Positions 30,934 through 51,542 of a DNA stretch of 51,542 nucleotides are shown here, one piece after another. The number at the start of each line of letters is the position of its first letter. The first letter of the stretch is position 1. Location of the stretch: contig CAZLXD010000002.1 of assembly GCA_964563185.1 (NCBI GenBank), positions 1-51,542 of the forward strand, written 5' to 3'. The position numbers were made by a program, and so were the translations under genes. The notes under the pieces were generated by a model. The model saw only the letters and a program-made list of their open reading frames with translations. It ran no database searches and was not told the origin of the DNA. Source of the stretch: an uncultured Chitinophaga sp. GTDB lineage: Bacteria; Bacteroidota; Bacteroidia; Chitinophagales; LD1.

Positions 30934-32352
30934 ATGCTTAAAAGAATACTCCTTCCCGTTTTATTGCTGGCTGTTTTAGTTAACTGGTCGGGCTGTAAAA
31001 AAGAATGCAACATACCGCTGCCCAACAACCCCGGTGATACTACTTACGTGCAAACCACCCCCTGGCCCAAGTGGGTTTTTCAGCATTGGGTGTGGGAAGG
31101 CGAAGGCACCACGCAAAGCGCCCGGCAACTGGTTGATGATTACTTAGCCAACGGCATACCGGTAGATGCTATTATTATTGACAGCCCCTGGGAAACCGGC
31201 TACAATACTTTTGAGTGGGACAGCACCCGCTACCCCGATGCACAGGGCATGATTGATTACTTCCACAGCAAAAACATAAAAGTGCTTTGCTGGATAACCG
31301 GAGGCATTGATACCAACATGCACCCCCTGTGGGACTACGCCAAAGACCACAACTATTTTATGAAAGAGAATGCCAACAGCGGCCCCGCTATTGTAAAATG
31401 GTGGAAGCCTACCCGTTGCAGCCTCATAGATTTTTACAACCCCGATGCCGTGGCCTGGTGGAAGGGCCTGATGGATAAAACACTGGCCTATGGTATTGAC
31501 GGCTGGAAGTGCGATGGCTCCGATTTTCTGCTGTACGATGTGCAGAATTTTAAATCGTATTTCTACTCGCCTTACTTACAGGGCAACATACCCAGCCGCA
31601 ACGATTACTCGGAAAAATACTACCGCCTGTTTCACGAATACAGCCGCCAGAAGTTAGGCAACGACCGCGTGGTGATGTGCCGCCCCGTAGATAATTACGG
31701 CTACCCTTTCAGCGGCAGTTTAGTGGAGTTTGGCCCCAAGGATATCAGCTATGCTTACTGGGTGGGCGACCAGGATGGCGACTTTAACGGTATGAAAGCC
31801 GCGCTCAACAACATGTACGAAAGCGATGCTTCGGGCTACTACAGCTTTGGTTCCGATATTGGCGGCTACCGCACCGATGAAACCCTGTACCCCGGCACCG
31901 GCCGTTCGAAAGAAAGCTTTATACGCTGGGCACAGCTGGGCGCTTTTAGCGGCTTAATGGAAAACGGTGGCGGAGGCGAGCACCGCCCCTGGATGTTCGA
32001 CCAGCAAACCAACGAGATATACAAAAAGCTGGTGATTATGCGCAACAAATACTTAGTGGGTTACTTAATGGAAAACATGAGCAAGGTAGTGGCGCAGGGC
32101 AGCTCGCTCATGAACTTTTACAACAAAACCGATTACAGCTATATGCTGGGCGATGATATTTACGTAGCGCCTGTGCTAAGCAGCAGCGGCACCGTAACCG
32201 TTAACCTGCCCGCAGGCGATAACTGGGTTTACTTATACGATAAAACCAAAGTATACGAAGGCGGGCAAAGCATTACCAAAACCTACGCGCTGGAAGAGTT
32301 CCCCGTTTACATAAAGCAAAGCAGTAAGCTGGCCGATGCGGTGGTGATGTAG
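30934..32352 (+). CDS. Glycoside hydrolase family 31-like lipoprotein
   Basis: Lipoprotein signal (NWSGCKK). GH31-like catalytic-region motifs (GIDGWKCDGSDF; WVGDQDGDF; FGSDIGGY). Confidence 0.75.
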   Translation: MLKRILLPVLLLAVLVNWSGCKKECNIPLPNNPGDTTYVQTTPWPKWVFQHWVWEGEGTTQSARQLVDDYLANGIPVDAIIIDSPWETGYNTFEWDSTRYPDAQGMIDYFHSKNIKVLCWITGGIDTNMHPLWDYAKDHNYFMKENANSGPAIVKWWKPTRCSLIDFYNPDAVAWWKGLMDKTLAYGIDGWKCDGSDFLLYDVQNFKSYFYSPYLQGNIPSRNDYSEKYYRLFHEYSRQKLGNDRVVMCRPVDNYGYPFSGSLVEFGPKDISYAYWVGDQDGDFNGMKAALNNMYESDASGYYSFGSDIGGYRTDETLYPGTGRSKESFIRWAQLGAFSGLMENGGGGEHRPWMFDQQTNEIYKKLVIMRNKYLVGYLMENMSKVVAQGSSLMNFYNKTDYSYMLGDDIYVAPVLSSSGTVTVNLPAGDNWVYLYDKTKVYEGGQSITKTYALEEFPVYIKQSSKLADAVVM

Positions 32353-32353
32353 G
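32298..32353 (+). repeat. Direct repeat copy A (3' end of the GH31 gene including its stop)
   Basis: 55/56 nt identical to 33067-33122 by hand alignment. The single mismatch is at 32349 (G versus A). Confidence 0.9.
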
Positions 32354-32467
32354 GAAAGAAGATTTCCGAAGCTTTTGATATTTAAAAGTATTTAGATGGC
32401 GGGGCACCGGCCGATAAGAAATGGTTGCTGTGTTTGTATATCTTTGAGAAAACAAAGTTGTTTCGCC

Positions 32468-32698
32468 ATGAAACCATATCAGGAAATAATTTCGGTGAAT
32501 CCGAATGTGCGCTCGGGTAAACCATGTGTGCGCAATTTGCGAATTACCGTAGCCGATGTGCTTGGTTACCTTGCCGCAGGCATGACCCGGCAGGAAATAA
32601 TTGCTGATTTTCCCACACTTACCAATGAAGATATTACTGCCTGCCTGGCTTATGCGGCAGACAGCGAAAAGCATGTAAAGTTTGCCTCGGTTGACTAA
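32468..32698 (+). CDS. DUF433 domain protein (putative antitoxin)
   Basis: The sequence NPNVRSGKPCVRNLRITVADVLGYLAAGMT.EEI..DFP.LT.EDI.A.L.YA is the typical DUF433 pattern. The internal ATG at 32468 is used. Its stop overlaps the next start (TAATG). Confidence 0.85.
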   Translation: MKPYQEIISVNPNVRSGKPCVRNLRITVADVLGYLAAGMTRQEIIADFPTLTNEDITACLAYAADSEKHVKFASVD

Positions 32699-33030
32699 TG
32701 GTTTTAGTAGATAACAATCTCTCTTATCGGGTAGCTGTTTTTCTTCATAAGGCTTTTCCGGGCAGTGCACATGTGGCAACGTATAACATGGATGAAAACA
32801 CCGAAGATATTGCGATATGGAATTTTGCGAAAGAAAAGGGGTTTACTATTCTTACTAAGGATAATGACTTTGAATCGTTGAGCCGTTTGTTTGGCTGCCC
32901 GCCAAAGGTTATTCAACTTACCTGCGGCAATAAAACAACTTCACAGATAAATTCAATTTTAGAAAAAAGCGTTGCCGTAATAGGCGGTTTTATTGAAGAT
33001 GACGAAAACTGCCTGATGTATTTGCAGTAG
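32698..33030 (+). CDS. DUF5615 family PIN-like nuclease (putative toxin)
   Basis: The N-terminus (LVDNNLSYRVAVFL) and the motif (ILTKDNDF) are typical of the Mut7-C/DUF5615 partners of DUF433. Confidence 0.8.
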   Translation: MVLVDNNLSYRVAVFLHKAFPGSAHVATYNMDENTEDIAIWNFAKEKGFTILTKDNDFESLSRLFGCPPKVIQLTCGNKTTSQINSILEKSVAVIGGFIEDDENCLMYLQ

Positions 33031-33066: not shown

Positions 33067-33122
33067 GTTCCCCGTTTACATAAAGCAAAGCAGTAAGCTG
33101 GCCGATGCGGTGGTGATATAGG
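33067..33122 (+). repeat. Direct repeat copy B (orphan copy of the GH31 3' end)
   Basis: 55/56 nt identical to 32298-32353. It is not attached to any upstream GH31 reading frame. Confidence 0.9.
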
Positions 33123-33363: not shown

Positions 33364-33396
33364 AGCGATACCATCCCTTAAAGGGATGGTATCGCT
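33364..33396. repeat. Perfect 14-bp-stem hairpin AGCGATACCATCCC-TTAAA-GGGATGGTATCGCT
   Basis: Read directly. The arms are near-identical to those of the hairpin at 38100-38146. It lies 80 nt downstream of the minus-strand T9SS gene. Confidence 0.85.
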
Positions 33397-35548: not shown

Positions 35549-35718
35549 AGAGGTGCTTTATGTAAACATACAAAGTATGCTTTCTATTCGATTGCGCTCT
35601 CTTAAAAAATGACATTTCTGTGACAATTCCCCCAATGGCGAGCGTTTCCCCACTGCCCCCGCACCTCGCTCTTGCCAAAGAGGTTAAAGCAACTTCAACA
35701 AATCAACGGAACTTCTCC

Positions 35719-36327
35719 TCACTCCTTCTTCTCCTCATCGCCCTTCTGTTTAAGTTTAGGCTTTCTTTTCTTTTTGTTGCGCTGTCGTATTGTCTCCTTT
35801 GCTCTTTTTATTTCCTCCTCTGAAAGAAACTGGTGAGCAAACACCTCGCGGTAGTATTGCCATTCGCGGACTGTTAAAGGAGTCCAGTTTGCGTATAAAA
35901 CGGTACTGGCTTCTGCCGCGCATTGTTCAAATTCCTGTAATAGTTGTACCGATAGTTGGTTGTGTGCTTTGGCTGAACCGTTTGCCACCGCCCTTCGCCA
36001 TTTCAAATTGTGATGCCCAAAAACAACCTGCAAATACTCTACGTGCGAAAGAAACATGTGCAGCCTCGAACTGGCATCGGTTTGCTCGTAGCAGGCTTTC
36101 CTGTTTTTGGAAAGAAACTGAAGCATACTTAACGGGTAGTGTTGTTCCCCGTTATGGAAAATTAGCCCCCATTCGTTCTGGTAGTAGTCCTCCACTAAAG
36201 GCTTTGGTATTCGACCGGCTATCATTAGCCGGATTGTTTTCCAGGAGAGCCTTGAAAACAATTGCTTCTGTTTTCGATAGCGCAACATAAGCTGTTCTCT
36301 AATCTGTTGTTCAGTTACTGTTACCAT
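35719..36327 (-). CDS. Hypothetical protein (202 aa) with a Lys-rich C-terminal tail ending KGDEEKKE
   Basis: Long ORF with an ATG start, 42 nt downstream of the HTH gene on the same strand. No family recognised. Confidence 0.6.
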   Translation of the reverse strand: MVTVTEQQIREQLMLRYRKQKQLFSRLSWKTIRLMIAGRIPKPLVEDYYQNEWGLIFHNGEQHYPLSMLQFLSKNRKACYEQTDASSRLHMFLSHVEYLQVVFGHHNLKWRRAVANGSAKAHNQLSVQLLQEFEQCAAEASTVLYANWTPLTVREWQYYREVFAHQFLSEEEIKRAKETIRQRNKKKRKPKLKQKGDEEKKE

Positions 36328-36368
36328 ATATAAGGTTGGTAGTTAAGTAAACGGATTATTTCTCCCCC

Positions 36369-36716
36369 TCACTCCTTCTTCTCCTCATTGCCCTTTTCAA
36401 ACAGCTTGCGTATTTCATCGGGGCTAAGGTTTTTAATAGCCTCATCCAGCACAAACGGGGCTTTGGGTTTAAGCTGTTGCAGGGGATGCCGGGGGTCGTC
36501 CTGCATGGTGTCATCGGGCAACCATTCAAACAGGTCGTTGGGGCGGCAATGCAAAAGCAGGCATAGTGTTTCTACATGCTCAATCAATATCCATTTCTTT
36601 TTGCCGCTCATATAGTCGTGGGCAATAGAGTGGCTAATGCCCAGGGCTACCATTTTTTTAAACGGAGCCTTTACTCCTTTTTCTTTCATGAGCGATTTAA
36701 TACGTAGGCGAATCAT
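36369..36716 (-). CDS. XRE/Cro-C1-type helix-turn-helix DNA-binding protein (115 aa), tail KGNEEKKE
   Basis: The N-terminal 65 aa show the HTH_3-like pattern, ending in the typical L...L.C.PNDLFEW. Confidence 0.7.
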   Translation of the reverse strand: MIRLRIKSLMKEKGVKAPFKKMVALGISHSIAHDYMSGKKKWILIEHVETLCLLLHCRPNDLFEWLPDDTMQDDPRHPLQQLKPKAPFVLDEAIKNLSPDEIRKLFEKGNEEKKE

Positions 36717-36854
36717 GGTGTTTATTTTTAAGGTTAAATAATTGCTGAATTATCCCCTCTTCCTATCCCCGCTGCGGGATGCTGCACTTTGCCGACAGCA
36801 CTAATATAAGCATCTGTTTTAATCCTTAAAAATTTTTTTCGGAGGTAAATCAAC

Positions 36855-37022
36855 ATGCCGAAGCGGTAACTGTAAATGCTGAAACGGTAACTAAAAGTTA
36901 GAAACCGGTAACTGAATATTGCGCAGTGGTAACGAAAAATGATGCGGCAGTAACAAAAAATGATGCGGTGGTAACGAAAAGTGCTAAAACGATAACTGAA
37001 AATGCCGCAGCGGTAACTATAC
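36855..37022. repeat. Eight contiguous 21-bp direct repeats (iteron-like), core GGTAAC
   Basis: Units start at 36855, 36876, 36897, 36918, 36939, 36960, 36981 and 37002. A degenerate in-phase unit (GGTAAA core) lies at 36834-36854. Confidence 0.9.
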
Positions 37023-37116
37023 CCCCGTGCAAAACTTGCCTTTTTAAAGCGGCATAAAAGGCCGGTGCCGCTATAGCTTAGCCTTAAAATATTACTAACA
37101 CTAAAAACCAAACACT

Positions 37117-38085
37117 ATGAACAGCGCACAGGAAGACCACTACGGCATGTATTTAAAAGTTGATCTTATGTTGGGCACCAATGCTCCCGATTTAGCCTTT
37201 AACCCGGCTATAGCCACCAACAAAACAATACTGCACTCGCTTATTAACCTTATTGCACAGGCCGACAGTACCGCCACCCGCGACATTACCGGCTTTACAA
37301 CCGCTAAAAACGAACACCGCACGCAGCAAATAGCCCAGTTTAAACTGGTGCGTGCGGCTATGATGGGCTACTACACCACCAACCCCGACATTAAAAGCAA
37401 AACCATTATTGATTTTAATGATTCGGATATTGACAAGTTCCGCGATGCCGAACTGTACATAAAAACCGATCAGTTGCTTGATTTGGCACTGCCCGTAAAA
37501 GCCGTGCTGGATACCTTTGGCGTTACTTCGGGCGAAGTGGATGCCCTGGAGGCACTGAACGAGGCCTGGCAAAGTTTAGAACCCATAGGCCGGCAGGAAG
37601 AAGGAGTAAACAAAGCCGCCCGCGAAGATGTGGGCCGCTATATGGTGCAGACAGACAAATTAGTAAAGAACACCTTAGATAGTTATTTAAAGGTAGTGGA
37701 GTACACAAACCCCAACCTGTACAGCCGTTACTTAACCGCCCGTATGATTGACAACAGCGGGGGCAACAGCGGCACTGAGGGGTACGATGTACAAACGCTG
37801 AACATACCTGCAGGCGGATCGGTGTTGTTTCCTATTGGGGCGGGGTCTATTAACCCACTTCTTCAAATTTACCTGCGCGCTATAAGCGGTAATGTATTTG
37901 TATGCACTACCGATTTACCCGCCAGCCCATGCGTAGCTGCCGGCAGCTATCAATTGCTGCAGGGGGTTACTTTTAAAAAGAGTATAGGCGAGTTGGGAAT
38001 AGACCTGAACAAGAATACCCTGCAACTAACCAACCCCGGCTTAAGCGATGCGGTGATAAGGGCAGGGGTAAAAGAGGAGGAGTAA
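37117..38085 (+). CDS. Hypothetical protein (322 aa): no signal peptide, helical N-terminal half, beta-rich C-terminal half, tail GVKEEE
   Basis: Long ATG-initiated ORF followed 15 nt later by a strong terminator hairpin. No family recognised. Confidence 0.65.
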   Translation: MNSAQEDHYGMYLKVDLMLGTNAPDLAFNPAIATNKTILHSLINLIAQADSTATRDITGFTTAKNEHRTQQIAQFKLVRAAMMGYYTTNPDIKSKTIIDFNDSDIDKFRDAELYIKTDQLLDLALPVKAVLDTFGVTSGEVDALEALNEAWQSLEPIGRQEEGVNKAAREDVGRYMVQTDKLVKNTLDSYLKVVEYTNPNLYSRYLTARMIDNSGGNSGTEGYDVQTLNIPAGGSVLFPIGAGSINPLLQIYLRAISGNVFVCTTDLPASPCVAAGSYQLLQGVTFKKSIGELGIDLNKNTLQLTNPGLSDAVIRAGVKEEE

Positions 38086-38099
38086 GCAGGAAGAAATAC

Positions 38100-38146
38100 A
38101 ATAAACAGCGATGCCATCCCCGGATGGGATGGCATCGCTGTTTATT
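38100..38146 (+). terminator. Perfect 21-bp-stem hairpin (terminator of the 322-aa gene)
   Basis: AATAAACAGCGATGCCATCCC-CGGAT-GGGATGGCATCGCTGTTTATT. The arm core CAGCGATGCCATCCC differs at one position from the 33364 hairpin. Confidence 0.8.
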
Positions 38147-38307
38147 GCCCGGTGCCTTTAGCCAATAGTTTCCCTTTATTTGTTAGCGGTGGGTATCTCA
38201 CCCACCGAAACCGGTAAGAAAACACCTCTGTGGCCCACCTTTGTTTGTATAGTTTCGTGATAGATTCAGGGGGCATTAGGCTGCATTAAGAAAGACAAGC
38301 TGCCGTG

Positions 38308-39239: not shown

Positions 39240-40364
39240 CTACTCAAACGGATTACTAAAAGCCGGGTTGTGGAGGAAGGTGGTATCGGTAAGGGTTTTC
39301 AGAAAAGCAATTAAATCGGCCTTGTCCTGCGGGGTAAGGTATTTAAGCCCACCACGGTGAACGGTTTTCATTTGCGGGTCAACGGTGGGGGAGGTTTTTA
39401 AACTATCGTTGTAAAAATCAACCACGTGTTCCAGCGTGGCAAAGCGGCCATCGTGCATGTAAGGGCCGGTTACTTCAATATTGCGGATGTGGGGTGTGCG
39501 GAACTTTCCGTTATCGAGCATATTGTTGGTTACAGCACCCAGGCCTTTATCGGCAAAGTCGCTGAAGGAATTGGCAAAATCCAGCGCATTGTTGTGGAAG
39601 TTATCATCAATCATGGTAAGGCTGCTGGCGCTGGAAGAAGCATGGCAGTGAAAACAGTCGGCCCCGCCATCAATGGTATCTTTCATAAACAGGTCGTAAA
39701 AGCCGCGGCTTTCCTGAGGTGTAAAAGAAGCCTGGCCCCGCATTACCTTGTCAAACTTCGATTCGGAAGAAATGAGGGTCATTTCGAATTGTGCAATGGC
39801 TTTTTCAATTTTCTGCTGCGTAATAGTTCCGGGCCTTCCGAAGGCTTTTTTAAACAGGGCTACGTATTCGGGCTTAGCTTCCAGGCGGGGAATAACCACT
39901 GCGGGGCTAAAGCCCAGTTCGTGCAGCAGGGCATCGTTGGCCTGGGTGGGCAAATCTTCGCTTCGCCCGTCCCAAAAAAAGTCCTTCATCCAAACCATGT
40001 TAAACAATGGAGGGGAATTGCGCTTAGTGGCTCCAAATACATTCTGGCTAAGTGCTTTGCCCCCATCGGCAAAGGCAAACTCCTGTTTGTGGCACGAAGC
40101 ACAGGCCAGCGTGCTGTCCACCGATAGTACCGGGTCGTAAAATAACATGCGCCCGAGCAACACGCCTTCTTCGGTTAAAGGGTTATCGGCCGGTATGTTT
40201 ATAGAGGGAAACTTAAAAGGCTTTTGCAGCGTAAGCGGAACGCCTACATAAAGGCTGTCGGGGTCGTTACAATCGGTGCAGGTAAACGGAGGGTCGGGCT
40301 TGCATTGCTGCAAAAGCAAAAGAACTAACAGTAATATAGTAGTAAGCAGTAACCCGCGTTTCAT
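39240..40364 (-). CDS. Di-haem cytochrome c peroxidase / MauG family protein (MbnH-like)
   Basis: Two CxxCH motifs (CASCH and CFHCH). Lipoprotein-like signal. Located directly downstream of an MbnP-like gene. Confidence 0.85.
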   Translation of the reverse strand: MKRGLLLTTILLLVLLLLQQCKPDPPFTCTDCNDPDSLYVGVPLTLQKPFKFPSINIPADNPLTEEGVLLGRMLFYDPVLSVDSTLACASCHKQEFAFADGGKALSQNVFGATKRNSPPLFNMVWMKDFFWDGRSEDLPTQANDALLHELGFSPAVVIPRLEAKPEYVALFKKAFGRPGTITQQKIEKAIAQFEMTLISSESKFDKVMRGQASFTPQESRGFYDLFMKDTIDGGADCFHCHASSSASSLTMIDDNFHNNALDFANSFSDFADKGLGAVTNNMLDNGKFRTPHIRNIEVTGPYMHDGRFATLEHVVDFYNDSLKTSPTVDPQMKTVHRGGLKYLTPQDKADLIAFLKTLTDTTFLHNPAFSNPFE

Positions 40365-40367
40365 GGT

Positions 40368-41120
40368 TTAATGGGAATAGATAAAGGAATTGGCAAACTG
40401 ATTGGAAAACTGCAGGGCAATGTTTAAGTCACCATCTTCAGACTGGGTGCCGGGTTGTGTAAACATGTTGAGCGGAGCAGGTGCCTGCTGAAATATTTTG
40501 AGCAAATCGAGGTTCAATGTCAGTGTTTTCTTTTCGCCTTCGTTCACTACAATATCGGAGCCGGTAAGGGTTACTTCGCGGTAGCAGGTATCGCGGCCAA
40601 CGTGGTAAACCATTCCAACCACCCCGCTCGTAAAGTTATTGCCTAAAGTATCGGCCGTTCCTTCTAAAACTATAAAACGGTGTTTCAGCCACTCCCAGAA
40701 CATGTCTTCTTTAGGCCCTAAGGCTTCGGATGAACTGTAGTTATCGGGGTCGGTGGCGTTTTGCTGCGGGTCTAAACCAACATTAAACTTTAAGCCTTTG
40801 TAGGTACCAGCATCCACCTCAGCCGAAAATGATTTCCAGTTACTATCATTCCAATCAAAGAAAGCGGCATCTTCTATTTCCACCTCGCTGTTGTCGGCTT
40901 TTACCAACCGGAAATGAGCTGCGTAAAATTTCAACTTGCTAAAGAAAAACTCTTTGCCGGCACCATCGTTGTAGGTGTTGGAAAAGCTGAAAGGCTGGTT
41001 GCCCACATAGGGTTGCAACTGAACGGTAAAGTTGGCTTTATCCTTTTCTTTACAGCCTGCCAGCAGCAACAGCATAACAGGAATTACAGATGCTATGCGA
41101 AGGATTTGTTTGGTCTTCAT
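40368..41120 (-). CDS. MbnP family copper-binding lipoprotein (putative)
   Basis: Lipoprotein signal (LLAGCKE), ~250 aa, with an LKFYAAHFRLV-type motif. It is paired 3 nt upstream of a di-haem peroxidase gene. Confidence 0.6.
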   Translation of the reverse strand: MKTKQILRIASVIPVMLLLLAGCKEKDKANFTVQLQPYVGNQPFSFSNTYNDGAGKEFFFSKLKFYAAHFRLVKADNSEVEIEDAAFFDWNDSNWKSFSAEVDAGTYKGLKFNVGLDPQQNATDPDNYSSSEALGPKEDMFWEWLKHRFIVLEGTADTLGNNFTSGVVGMVYHVGRDTCYREVTLTGSDIVVNEGEKKTLTLNLDLLKIFQQAPAPLNMFTQPGTQSEDGDLNIALQFSNQFANSFIYSH

Positions 41121-50390: not shown

Positions 50391-51542
50391 TGCCGATAAG
50401 CAGTTGCGCGAAAAGCTGAAAGGAGTGGAATATCCTTTCGACCCGCAGGCATGGGAGCAGATGGAGGCCATGCTGGACGAGAAGAAAAAGCGCAGAGGTT
50501 TCTTTTGGTGGTGGGTTGGCGGTATAGCGACAGCCTTGCTGATAACCGCAGGTACCATAGGCTACGGCTTGTGGTTAATGGGCGAAGAGGACCGCTTTGC
50601 AGGAGCAGAGTATGCGCAGGAACAAGAGCAAGGGGAAAACAGAAAGCAAGTAGTTGGCAGTGAAGAGCAAAAGGCAAAAAGCAAAGAGCAATTAGCCAAT
50701 GATAATGAAGAAGAAAGAGCAAAAGACAAAGAGCAAATTGCGAAGGGCAAAGGGCAGTTGATAAACGGCAAAGGGCAAGAGACAAACAATAAACAGAGAA
50801 CAGCAAACAACAAACAACAAACCAAAACTTCGCCCGCGGCTAAACAAAACCGCAAAGGCAACCAGCAGCAACGCACTAAAGAAGTGTTGGAGCAAGTAGC
50901 AAACAACGAAGCAAACTATAACAACAGCAGTGCGCAAACCGAATTGGCAACTCCGGCTGTTCCTGTTTCAGCAACACAAAAAGAAGAAGCCCTTTCGCTA
51001 AACACTATGTATGCTTTATTGAATGGCAAGGACGATGCCTTGAACACCGATAAGAAAGAAGAAAGTAAACTGCCGAAGAAGAAAAAGTGGTTTACCTATT
51101 CCATTGGGCCTATGGCAAATGTTACGGGCACTATTCTCAGCAATCCATTTGTTGCTGATAGTGCTGCCCGCAACCGTTCCGCTTTTTCGAAGGGCGCTTC
51201 GTTTATGGCGGGCTTTCAGCAGGAGTTTTTGTTTGTTGACCGCATAGCGCTTACTACCGGATTTTTGTATTCGCAAACTTCGTTTGATATACACCACATT
51301 AACCTAAACAACAACTATTCGCGCCCGCCATTAGCTTATACCTGCAACATCAGCGAAATGAATATTACCACCGGCATTAAAGCCAACCTGGTAGCAAAAA
51401 ATAATGTGCGCTTTTATGTGCATACGGGTTTTATACATCACATAAAACTAACGGAGCAGTTTACCTATACTTATCCAAATGATACGGTGCCCGCTAATGT
51501 TTGGAACGGAAGTAATGTGGTAAACAACACCACCGGTTTCCC
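50380..51542 (+). CDS. Putative anti-sigma / membrane-anchored protein with a C-terminal porin-like beta-barrel (partial; runs off the right edge)
   Basis: Manual translation from ATG 50380 gives MESNADKQLREKLKGVEYPFDPQAWEQMEAMLDEKKKRRGFFWWWVGGIATALLI... This is followed by a K/E/Q-rich linker and then a beta-strand-rich region. The frame is open to the window end. It overlaps the sigma-factor stop by 11 nt. Confidence 0.7.
   Translation, partial: MESNADKQLREKLKGVEYPFDPQAWEQMEAMLDEKKKRRGFFWWWVGGIATALLITAGTIGYGLWLMGEEDRFAGAEYAQEQEQGENRKQVVGSEEQKAKSKEQLANDNEEERAKDKEQIAKGKGQLINGKGQETNNKQRTANNKQQTKTSPAAKQNRKGNQQQRTKEVLEQVANNEANYNNSSAQTELATPAVPVSATQKEEALSLNTMYALLNGKDDALNTDKKEESKLPKKKKWFTYSIGPMANVTGTILSNPFVADSAARNRSAFSKGASFMAGFQQEFLFVDRIALTTGFLYSQTSFDIHHINLNNNYSRPPLAYTCNISEMNITTGIKANLVAKNNVRFYVHTGFIHHIKLTEQFTYTYPNDTVPANVWNGSNVVNNTTGF

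Follow-up and report, generated by a model that had tools for sequence, protein, structure and literature searches.

Several described systems couple a small DNA-binding protein or an adjacent gene to a characteristic operator. Iteron replicons such as R6K, pSC101 and RK2 combine a Rep gene with 17-22-bp direct repeats placed about two helical turns apart, the omega repressor of inc18 plasmids (a ribbon-helix-helix, RHH, protein) and ParR/parC use direct repeats upstream of promoters, and the CI/Cro and SaPI Stl switches set an XRE-type helix-turn-helix (HTH) gene divergent from its target. In type II toxin-antitoxin (TA) systems with an XRE antitoxin (HigA, MqsA and HipB type), a small HTH gene has a co-directional partner, and HTH-regulated anti-phage defence systems with BrxR- or CapH-type regulators exist in defence islands. 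Here we describe a cassette that resembles each of these in part, found in a stretch of 51,542 nucleotides from an uncultured Chitinophaga sp. (contig CAZLXD010000002.1, positions 1 to 51,542; hereafter the window). With moderate confidence, we read it as a two-gene unit under HTH control, made of an HTH_26 regulator gene, an array of 6-16 repeats of 21 bp and a divergent gene for an acidic two-domain protein of 322 amino acids (aa), from which a neighbouring 202-aa open reading frame (ORF) is a separate insertion. We rate the cassette as an XRE-controlled gene with an iteron-like operator array.

In the window, the 115-aa HTH_26 regulator is encoded on the minus strand (36369-36716) and the 322-aa protein on the plus strand (37117-38085). 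The divergent spacer of 400 nt between them holds the array (36842-37018, plus strand): about 8.4 direct copies of a 21-nt unit, detected by Tandem Repeats Finder at period 21/42 and by repeat search, each built on a GGTAAC core with an A-tract and an ATG; the array is A-rich on the plus strand. Codon usage is native-like for the HTH gene (score 0.32), and the score of the 322-aa gene (0.37) is the highest in the window. This organisation bears out part of a preliminary description of the stretch, made from its letters alone: the three ORFs of 115, 202 and 322 aa are present as it had mapped them, the 322-aa gene is divergent across a repeat array (8.3-8.4 copies), and none of the three proteins has a signal peptide, with no hydrophobic N-terminus or transmembrane-like stretch in any of them. 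The group does lie between two type IX secretion system (T9SS) cargo genes, both flanking genes (690 aa and 292 aa) carrying a Por_Secre_tail domain, and close to a TA cassette (DUF433 plus the PIN-like DUF5615; genes 32396-33030), and the neighbourhood is indeed variable and appears rich in TA and defence genes. That description also placed the HTH gene 42 nt from a co-directional 202-aa ORF (35719-36327, minus strand), which lies outside the conserved cassette; the shared direction holds, and the gap measures 41 nt. Its grouping of all three genes as one module stands for the HTH and 322-aa genes, paired in 25/27 loci, and falls for the 202-aa gene, found in 0/26.

These counts come from a sample of 27 distinct loci with enough upstream DNA, and by sequence comparison the cassette recurs in relatives as far as we sampled in Bacteroidota. 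All 27 loci carry an array of 6-16 units with 21-nt periodicity: lags of 21, 42 and 63 are the top three autocorrelation lags in almost every locus, with lag 1 entering the top three in L003 and L012. An HTH gene is adjacent in 25 of the 27, being divergent and 350-590 nt upstream of the 322-aa-family gene in 24 (816 nt in L034) and rearranged in L028, and missing from L023 and L033. Array and HTH are still linked where the large protein has diverged to about 20% identity. In the rearranged locus (L028, 4779-6492), a T9SS gene lies directly 5' of the 322-aa-family gene and the array (TTAATCATTGACA...) lies 3' of it, with an HTH gene in the same direction immediately downstream of the array, so that all three elements are still linked despite the inversion. 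The two loci that have no adjacent HTH (L023, 4596-4927; L033, 2740-3818) are distant members with long 21/42-nt arrays of about 12-16 units, and L033 has an additional 7/21-nt repeat region further upstream.

Array sequences themselves are locus-specific, with cores that include GGTAAC, GTATCGA, GACGGACACTATTGC, GGGTAAGC and others, and most arrays contain an A-tract and are rich in A when read on the strand that encodes the large protein. Whilst the arrays vary, two boxes are conserved 3' of them, as seen in an alignment of 13 promoter-proximal regions: a GTGCAAAA box that follows the array directly and precedes the ATG by about 85 nt (37027-37034 in the window, plus strand), and a TAnnTTnG box that appears as a conserved column block 36-43 nt before the ATG (TAGCTTAG, 37074-37081, plus strand). 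The latter sequence resembles the -7 promoter element of Bacteroidetes, whose sigma-A promoters have the -7 consensus TAnnTTTG; a sigma-70 promoter scan is uninformative for Bacteroidota. Divergence is also evident within single genomes. Three genomes (Limnovirga soli and two metagenome-assembled genomes, MAGs) each hold two cassettes with different arrays, and the cores of these paralogous pairs are unrelated (L016/L017 in Limnovirga soli KCS-6, L011/L015 and L013/L020); no second paralogue was found within the window. Limnovirga soli KCS-6 is a cultured organism with two cassettes, which allows orthogonality testing. Relative to the closest relative, L003, the HTH protein is 57% identical and the 322-aa protein 87%, against 96% nucleotide identity of the flank.

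The 115-aa protein matches Pfam HTH_26 (Cro/C1) at E = 8e-7 (29.6 bits against a gathering cutoff of 22), and the HTH proteins of the distant loci L022, L024 and L034 likewise score above the threshold of this model. In alignment and entropy profile, the HTH lies at its N-terminus and is followed by a conserved region towards the C-terminus (C.PNDLFEW.PD...HPLQ...LTPDEIRKLF) and then by a K/E tail that varies; such K/E-rich tails, which differ in length, are peculiar to the HTH family. Its best PDB sequence match is SaPI2 Stl2 (8Q86; E = 0.01), over the HTH part only. As in the CI/Cro and Stl switches, an XRE HTH gene that evolves fast is divergent from its presumed target. Unlike these, the cassette has no phage or satellite genes nearby and no matches in phage collections, its operator is a long array of direct repeats in place of two or three palindromes, and similarity to Stl is limited to the HTH.

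The 322-aa protein is cytoplasmic and belongs to a large family. We found 39 close homologues, all unannotated, in Chitinophagales and other Bacteroidota MAGs and in Limnovirga soli, and an exhaustive profile search returned at least 4,237 clusters (50% identity) at E <= 1e-3, of which 2,047 reach E <= 1e-10, with lengths mostly of 310-325 aa. The AlphaFold2 (AF2) model, built on a 37-sequence alignment (predicted local distance difference test score, pLDDT, 88.7), comprises an all-helical N-terminal domain (1-209) and a C-terminal eight-strand β-sandwich of jelly-roll/cupin-like form (223-319), joined by a conserved, Gly-rich and disordered linker, IDDSGGNSG. Foldseek searches of PDB and BFVD gave weak cupin/jelly-roll matches only, confined to the C-terminal ~100 residues (E ~1e-3, TMq 0.2), and nothing for the whole protein or for the helical domain alone; full-length matches to SznF were discarded as meaningless, with an rmsd of ~25 Å. 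Sequence and profile searches of PDB with the family gave nothing significant. The family is not a metal-binding cupin because it has no conserved His; the conserved residues are Y252, R254, C263, C272, K287, N306 and R315. We found no recognisable DNA-binding, catalytic or NTPase motif in the protein.

The preliminary description had named no family beyond the HTH, and database searches agree: across Pfam, PHROGs, NCBIfam and PADLOC the three proteins yield HTH_26 alone, with no match for the 202-aa or 322-aa protein and, in PADLOC, none for any of the three at E <= 1. Of the searches it proposed, structure comparison returns a weak cupin-like similarity of the C-terminal part for the 322-aa protein, and sequence and profile searches return no match for the 202-aa protein. 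In 110 members of the 322-aa family, the N-terminal domain is without a Pfam model, and the place of the C-terminal domain is taken variously by CarboxypepD_reg, SpaA, SdrD_B, PEGA or Ig-like folds. In a wide-family alignment (P0046-P0191), one member matches BrxL_ATPase (E = 8e-15) and several members of 397-408 aa have CarboxypepD_reg domains; such fusions and domain swaps could be a hint to function.

The 202-aa ORF shows none of this conservation. It has no homologue among 5.8 billion proteins, the PDB sequences or the phage and plasmid collections, is absent by tblastn from 26/26 related loci, and has no blastp relative among the ORFs of the window and of a subset of loci. Its borders are marked by a 34-nt direct repeat, 35712-35745 and 36362-36395, whose copies are identical at 31/34 positions (91%; blastn-short E = 3.6e-8), each spanning a stop codon and 7 nt beyond, and which brackets 616 nt containing almost the whole ORF. 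The right copy is original to the HTH gene, covering its 3' end and the 7 nt that follow, and the HTH of L003 has the same tail; the left copy duplicates this 3' end, is 96.6% identical to that of the L003 HTH gene, and provides the 202-aa ORF with its stop and the 8 codons before it. The ORF would therefore owe its Glu/Lys tail solely to the 34 nt that were copied from the HTH gene on insertion. The shared charged C-termini that the preliminary description had noted are, on this evidence, a duplication scar in the case of KGNEEKKE and KGDEEKKE, without a common functional motif, and GVKEEE, with which the 322-aa protein ends, is not conserved in 37 homologues.

Beyond the 34-nt repeat, the 616-nt insert has no DNA relative in the window. 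The product of the ORF is basic (pI 9.8) and predicted to be helical; a single-sequence AF2 model was not used (pLDDT 46). Its codon score of 0.054 falls short of the lowest among the 23 reference genes of the window (0.064; mean 0.22) and exceeds those of antisense ORFs (-0.03 to -0.17), and a chance ORF of its length is expected 0.125 times per window; these values make it probable that the ORF is a genuine coding sequence of foreign origin. In our reading, it is specific to this strain, was inserted behind the HTH gene and is separate from the cassette.

A wider comparison places this insertion in a stretch that the closest relative does not share. Against that relative (L001-L003), the window is 96% identical up to the end of a GH31 gene and then wholly different until the HTH gene, the intervening DNA containing the TA cassette, a T9SS gene and the 202-aa ORF; L003 is without the DUF433/DUF5615 cassette. 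The latter is bracketed by a 56-nt direct repeat (32298-32353 and 33067-33122, 98% identical), which is a copy of the last 18 codons and stop of the upstream GH31 gene. Duplicated gene 3' ends at both the TA cassette and the HTH/202-aa junction point to a shared mechanism of insertion. Just upstream of the 690-aa T9SS gene (35554-35567), 14 nt of the 56-nt repeat recur in inverted orientation, which may be either chance (E = 0.13) or a further rearrangement scar.

Taken with the conserved pairing of regulator and large gene, the repeat architecture leads us to propose the following mechanism. The basic HTH protein (pI 8.9) would bind the 21-bp repeats head-to-tail and cooperatively, on one face of the helix; 21 bp amounts to two helical turns, and each unit carries an A-tract. 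The resulting nucleoprotein complex would form between the two divergent promoters and set, most likely silence, the expression of both the HTH gene itself and the 322-aa gene in a switch-like manner. The 322-aa protein would be the regulated output, with a conserved helical domain and an exchangeable C-terminal β-sandwich that probably serves target or ligand recognition. Rapid divergence of arrays and regulators, including between paralogues in one genome, would keep the copies orthogonal. The charges of the two proteins, one basic and one acidic (pI 4.85), fit the HTH protein as the binder, and L026 and L032 have both recognition helix and repeat core in common, with L029 differing in both. 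By analogy, the proposed assembly is like that of omega and of ParR on parC, a small DNA-binding protein plausibly polymerising on 7-10 or more direct repeats upstream of promoters, although the presumed binder here has an HTH_26 fold and not an RHH fold, and lacks a plasmid context.

As regards what the output might do, the chromosomal setting offers some indication. Cassettes lie on chromosomal contigs of up to 574 kb, near housekeeping genes such as those for PolA, RNase G, trigger factor and PdxA, and we found no integrase, transfer, phage or satellite genes in the flanks examined. The gene behind the HTH is often of a defence type, and such neighbours include a NotI endonuclease and methylase (L016), AbiH (L017), a mad2-like gene (L020), WapI immunity (L013), DUF6994 with NucS/EVE (L005), and PIN toxin-antitoxin pairs in L022, L023 and the window. 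In L024 (899-3836), a short prokaryotic Argonaute (pAgo) and a TIR-APAZ gene, SPARTA-like by PADLOC, lie directly downstream of the HTH gene and co-directional with it. This position in variable, apparently defence-rich chromosomal regions, together with the polymorphic domain, suggests a conflict- or defence-related role as the most likely biology, which is the weakest step of our proposal. The cassette is like BrxR- and CapH-regulated systems in having a small HTH regulator gene beside its presumed target, restriction-modification, AbiH and pAgo genes adjacent, and an output with a polymorphic C-terminus; unlike known defence systems, it matches no PADLOC model, and we know of no repeat array of such length for BrxR/CapH-type regulators.

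A number of observations weigh against this mechanism. Two loci (L023 and L033) carry an array without an adjacent HTH, and in L028 the array has stayed with the HTH whilst the 322-aa gene is flipped. The array is upstream of both promoters and not over them, an arrangement compatible with activation no less than with repression. Different recognition helices go with one and the same core in L011 and L013. In Mantel tests, array similarity followed how alike the 322-aa proteins are (partial r = 0.34, p = 4e-4) at least as well as it followed the helix 2-3 region of the HTH (partial r = 0.15, p = 0.05), so that covariation does not separate the HTH from the large protein as partner of the array; the test of recognition helix against array core could not identify the binder because phylogeny confounds it. 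As to the proposed role, neither the HTH nor the 322-aa protein has a PADLOC match, and the apparent association with defence is a raw count of about 5-8 of the 27 loci; restriction-modification, AbiH, TIR-APAZ/pAgo, mad2-like, WapI or TA genes adjoin about 8.

A bolder reading, which we advance only tentatively, is that these cassettes represent a previously unrecognised class of autonomous element, in which a locus-specific array and its fast-evolving binder form an addressable cis-site for a polymorphic effector. Candidate roles would then be a new kind of system against phages or mobile elements, or a platform beside which accessory genes nucleate or are captured; the cassette would in that case be more than an ordinary regulated gene. 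Lexical searches of the literature found no description of the cassette.

The partner of the array may instead be the 322-aa-family protein, alone or together with the HTH, for instance as a cis recombination or gene-capture platform. We regard this as unlikely. It would account for the arrays that have no HTH beside them (L023 and L033) and for the better correlation of array similarity with the large protein, and would fit the variable and defence genes that abut the cassette as well as the two insertions in the window bracketed by duplicated gene 3' ends (34 nt from the HTH gene, 56 nt from the GH31 gene). The correlation may merely reflect shared phylogeny, however, and an acidic protein (pI 4.85) with no conserved His and no recognisable DNA-binding or catalytic motif is a poor candidate for such a role. 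Moreover, the 34-nt and 56-nt repeats are copies of unlike sequences, which leaves no common att site.

We consider it improbable that the array is a cis-acting site of DNA maintenance, comparable to iterons or a centromere, with the proteins as initiator or partition factors of a relic or domesticated mini-replicon. The likeness to iteron replicons is real in layout: in-phase repeats of ~21 bp lie upstream of a gene of ~320 codons, and repeat specificity diverges rapidly. Tandem 21-bp repeats beside an auto-regulated gene recall the incompatibility logic of iterons and centromeres, as do the fast-diverging specificities and orthogonal copies within one genome, and the three elements stay together in the rearranged L028. 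The large protein, however, is predicted to be a helical bundle with a jelly-roll and not a winged-helix Rep (no Rep match in Pfam or PDB), there is an extra divergent XRE gene, and we found no evidence of a DNA unwinding element or DnaA box for the cassette. Unlike partition systems, neither protein and none of the conserved neighbours contains a ParA-, ParM- or TubZ-type NTPase (Walker, actin-like or tubulin-like). All copies are chromosomal, between housekeeping genes and with no adjacent integrase or transfer genes, and the 322-aa family has no match in 72,556 plasmids (PLSDB, by tblastn), 50,697 phages (INPHARED) or IMG/VR.

Less probable still is the arrangement suggested by the preliminary description, a single orphan defence or addiction module of three genes in which the HTH protein is antitoxin or regulator of a 202-aa effector. 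It draws on the co-directional pair of genes 41 nt apart, reminiscent of type II TA systems in which a small HTH gene precedes its partner, on the variable neighbourhood with its TA pair, and on an ORF too long to be a likely product of chance. Comparison gives this antitoxin-effector pairing no support: the gene downstream of the HTH is different in every locus, and convergent in 6 of 17 loci for which the layout was determined. Conservation of synteny outside the strain, which that description had itself proposed to look for, fails for the 202-aa gene, which occurs in 0/26 loci and has no homologue among 5.8e9 proteins. The identity of the tails is a duplication scar, and the codon usage of the ORF is atypical, with no PADLOC or Pfam match. 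Measured against type II TA systems, the pair does not qualify as a member because the pairing is conserved in no other genome and the "toxin", whose C-terminus is a duplication artefact, is without a family.

Least credible of all is that a micro-protein of coding heptad repeats, or an RNA that is structured or carries repeats, underlies the 21-nt period (divisible by 3 and equal to 7 codons), for although gene callers place small ORFs in several arrays and a minus-strand frame is open in 12/23, stops close all six frames in 9/23 (on which ground we rejected the heptad reading), no strand or frame is consistently open across the 23, conserved positions form contiguous blocks of 5-8 nt without a codon-phase pattern, the ORF in the window array has a non-coding codon score (-0.02), and an Rfam search of the region gave no match.

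Several further features of the window surround the cassette. The 322-aa gene is followed by a perfect hairpin with 22-nt arms, identified by repeat search and terminator scan as its terminator (38099-38147, plus strand); the scan scored the stem and T-run on the minus strand because the stem is a perfect palindrome. Homology to the closest relative stops at this hairpin (blastn breakpoint 38141). A related palindrome, also perfect, lies at 33364-33396, and the two share the arm AGCGAT(A/G)CCATCCC, which has 4 matches observed against 0.35 expected; together they delimit a stretch of 4.8 kb from the T9SS gene to the 322-aa gene. The pair may represent a terminator family, a family similar to repetitive extragenic palindromic (REP) elements, or a recombination boundary. 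Further downstream, a di-haem cytochrome c peroxidase (CCP_MauG) adjoins an MbnP-family protein (39240-41120), an MbnH/MbnP-like pair unrelated to the cassette, and near the end of the window (50666-50822) there is a cluster of A/G-rich tandem repeats of 7, 8 and 21 nt.

If the architecture holds over the ~4,000 clusters of the 322-aa family, this would be among the larger unannotated gene families in Bacteroidota and, if our reading is true, one whose regulatory signature is unusually rigid and easy to read: each locus has an in-phase 21-bp array of its own. The cassettes would then provide natural, orthogonal DNA-protein address pairs for Bacteroidota genetics, as well as a test case for cooperative head-to-tail assembly of HTH proteins on DNA. 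The duplications of gene 3' ends, of 34 nt and 56 nt, show a route by which accessory cassettes enter the genome, and they also show that orphan ORFs can gain borrowed C-termini, a caution for the reading of motifs from raw sequence. Finally, the large protein is a candidate for a new conflict system, in view of its apparent defence-island surroundings and of a C-terminal domain that can be exchanged.

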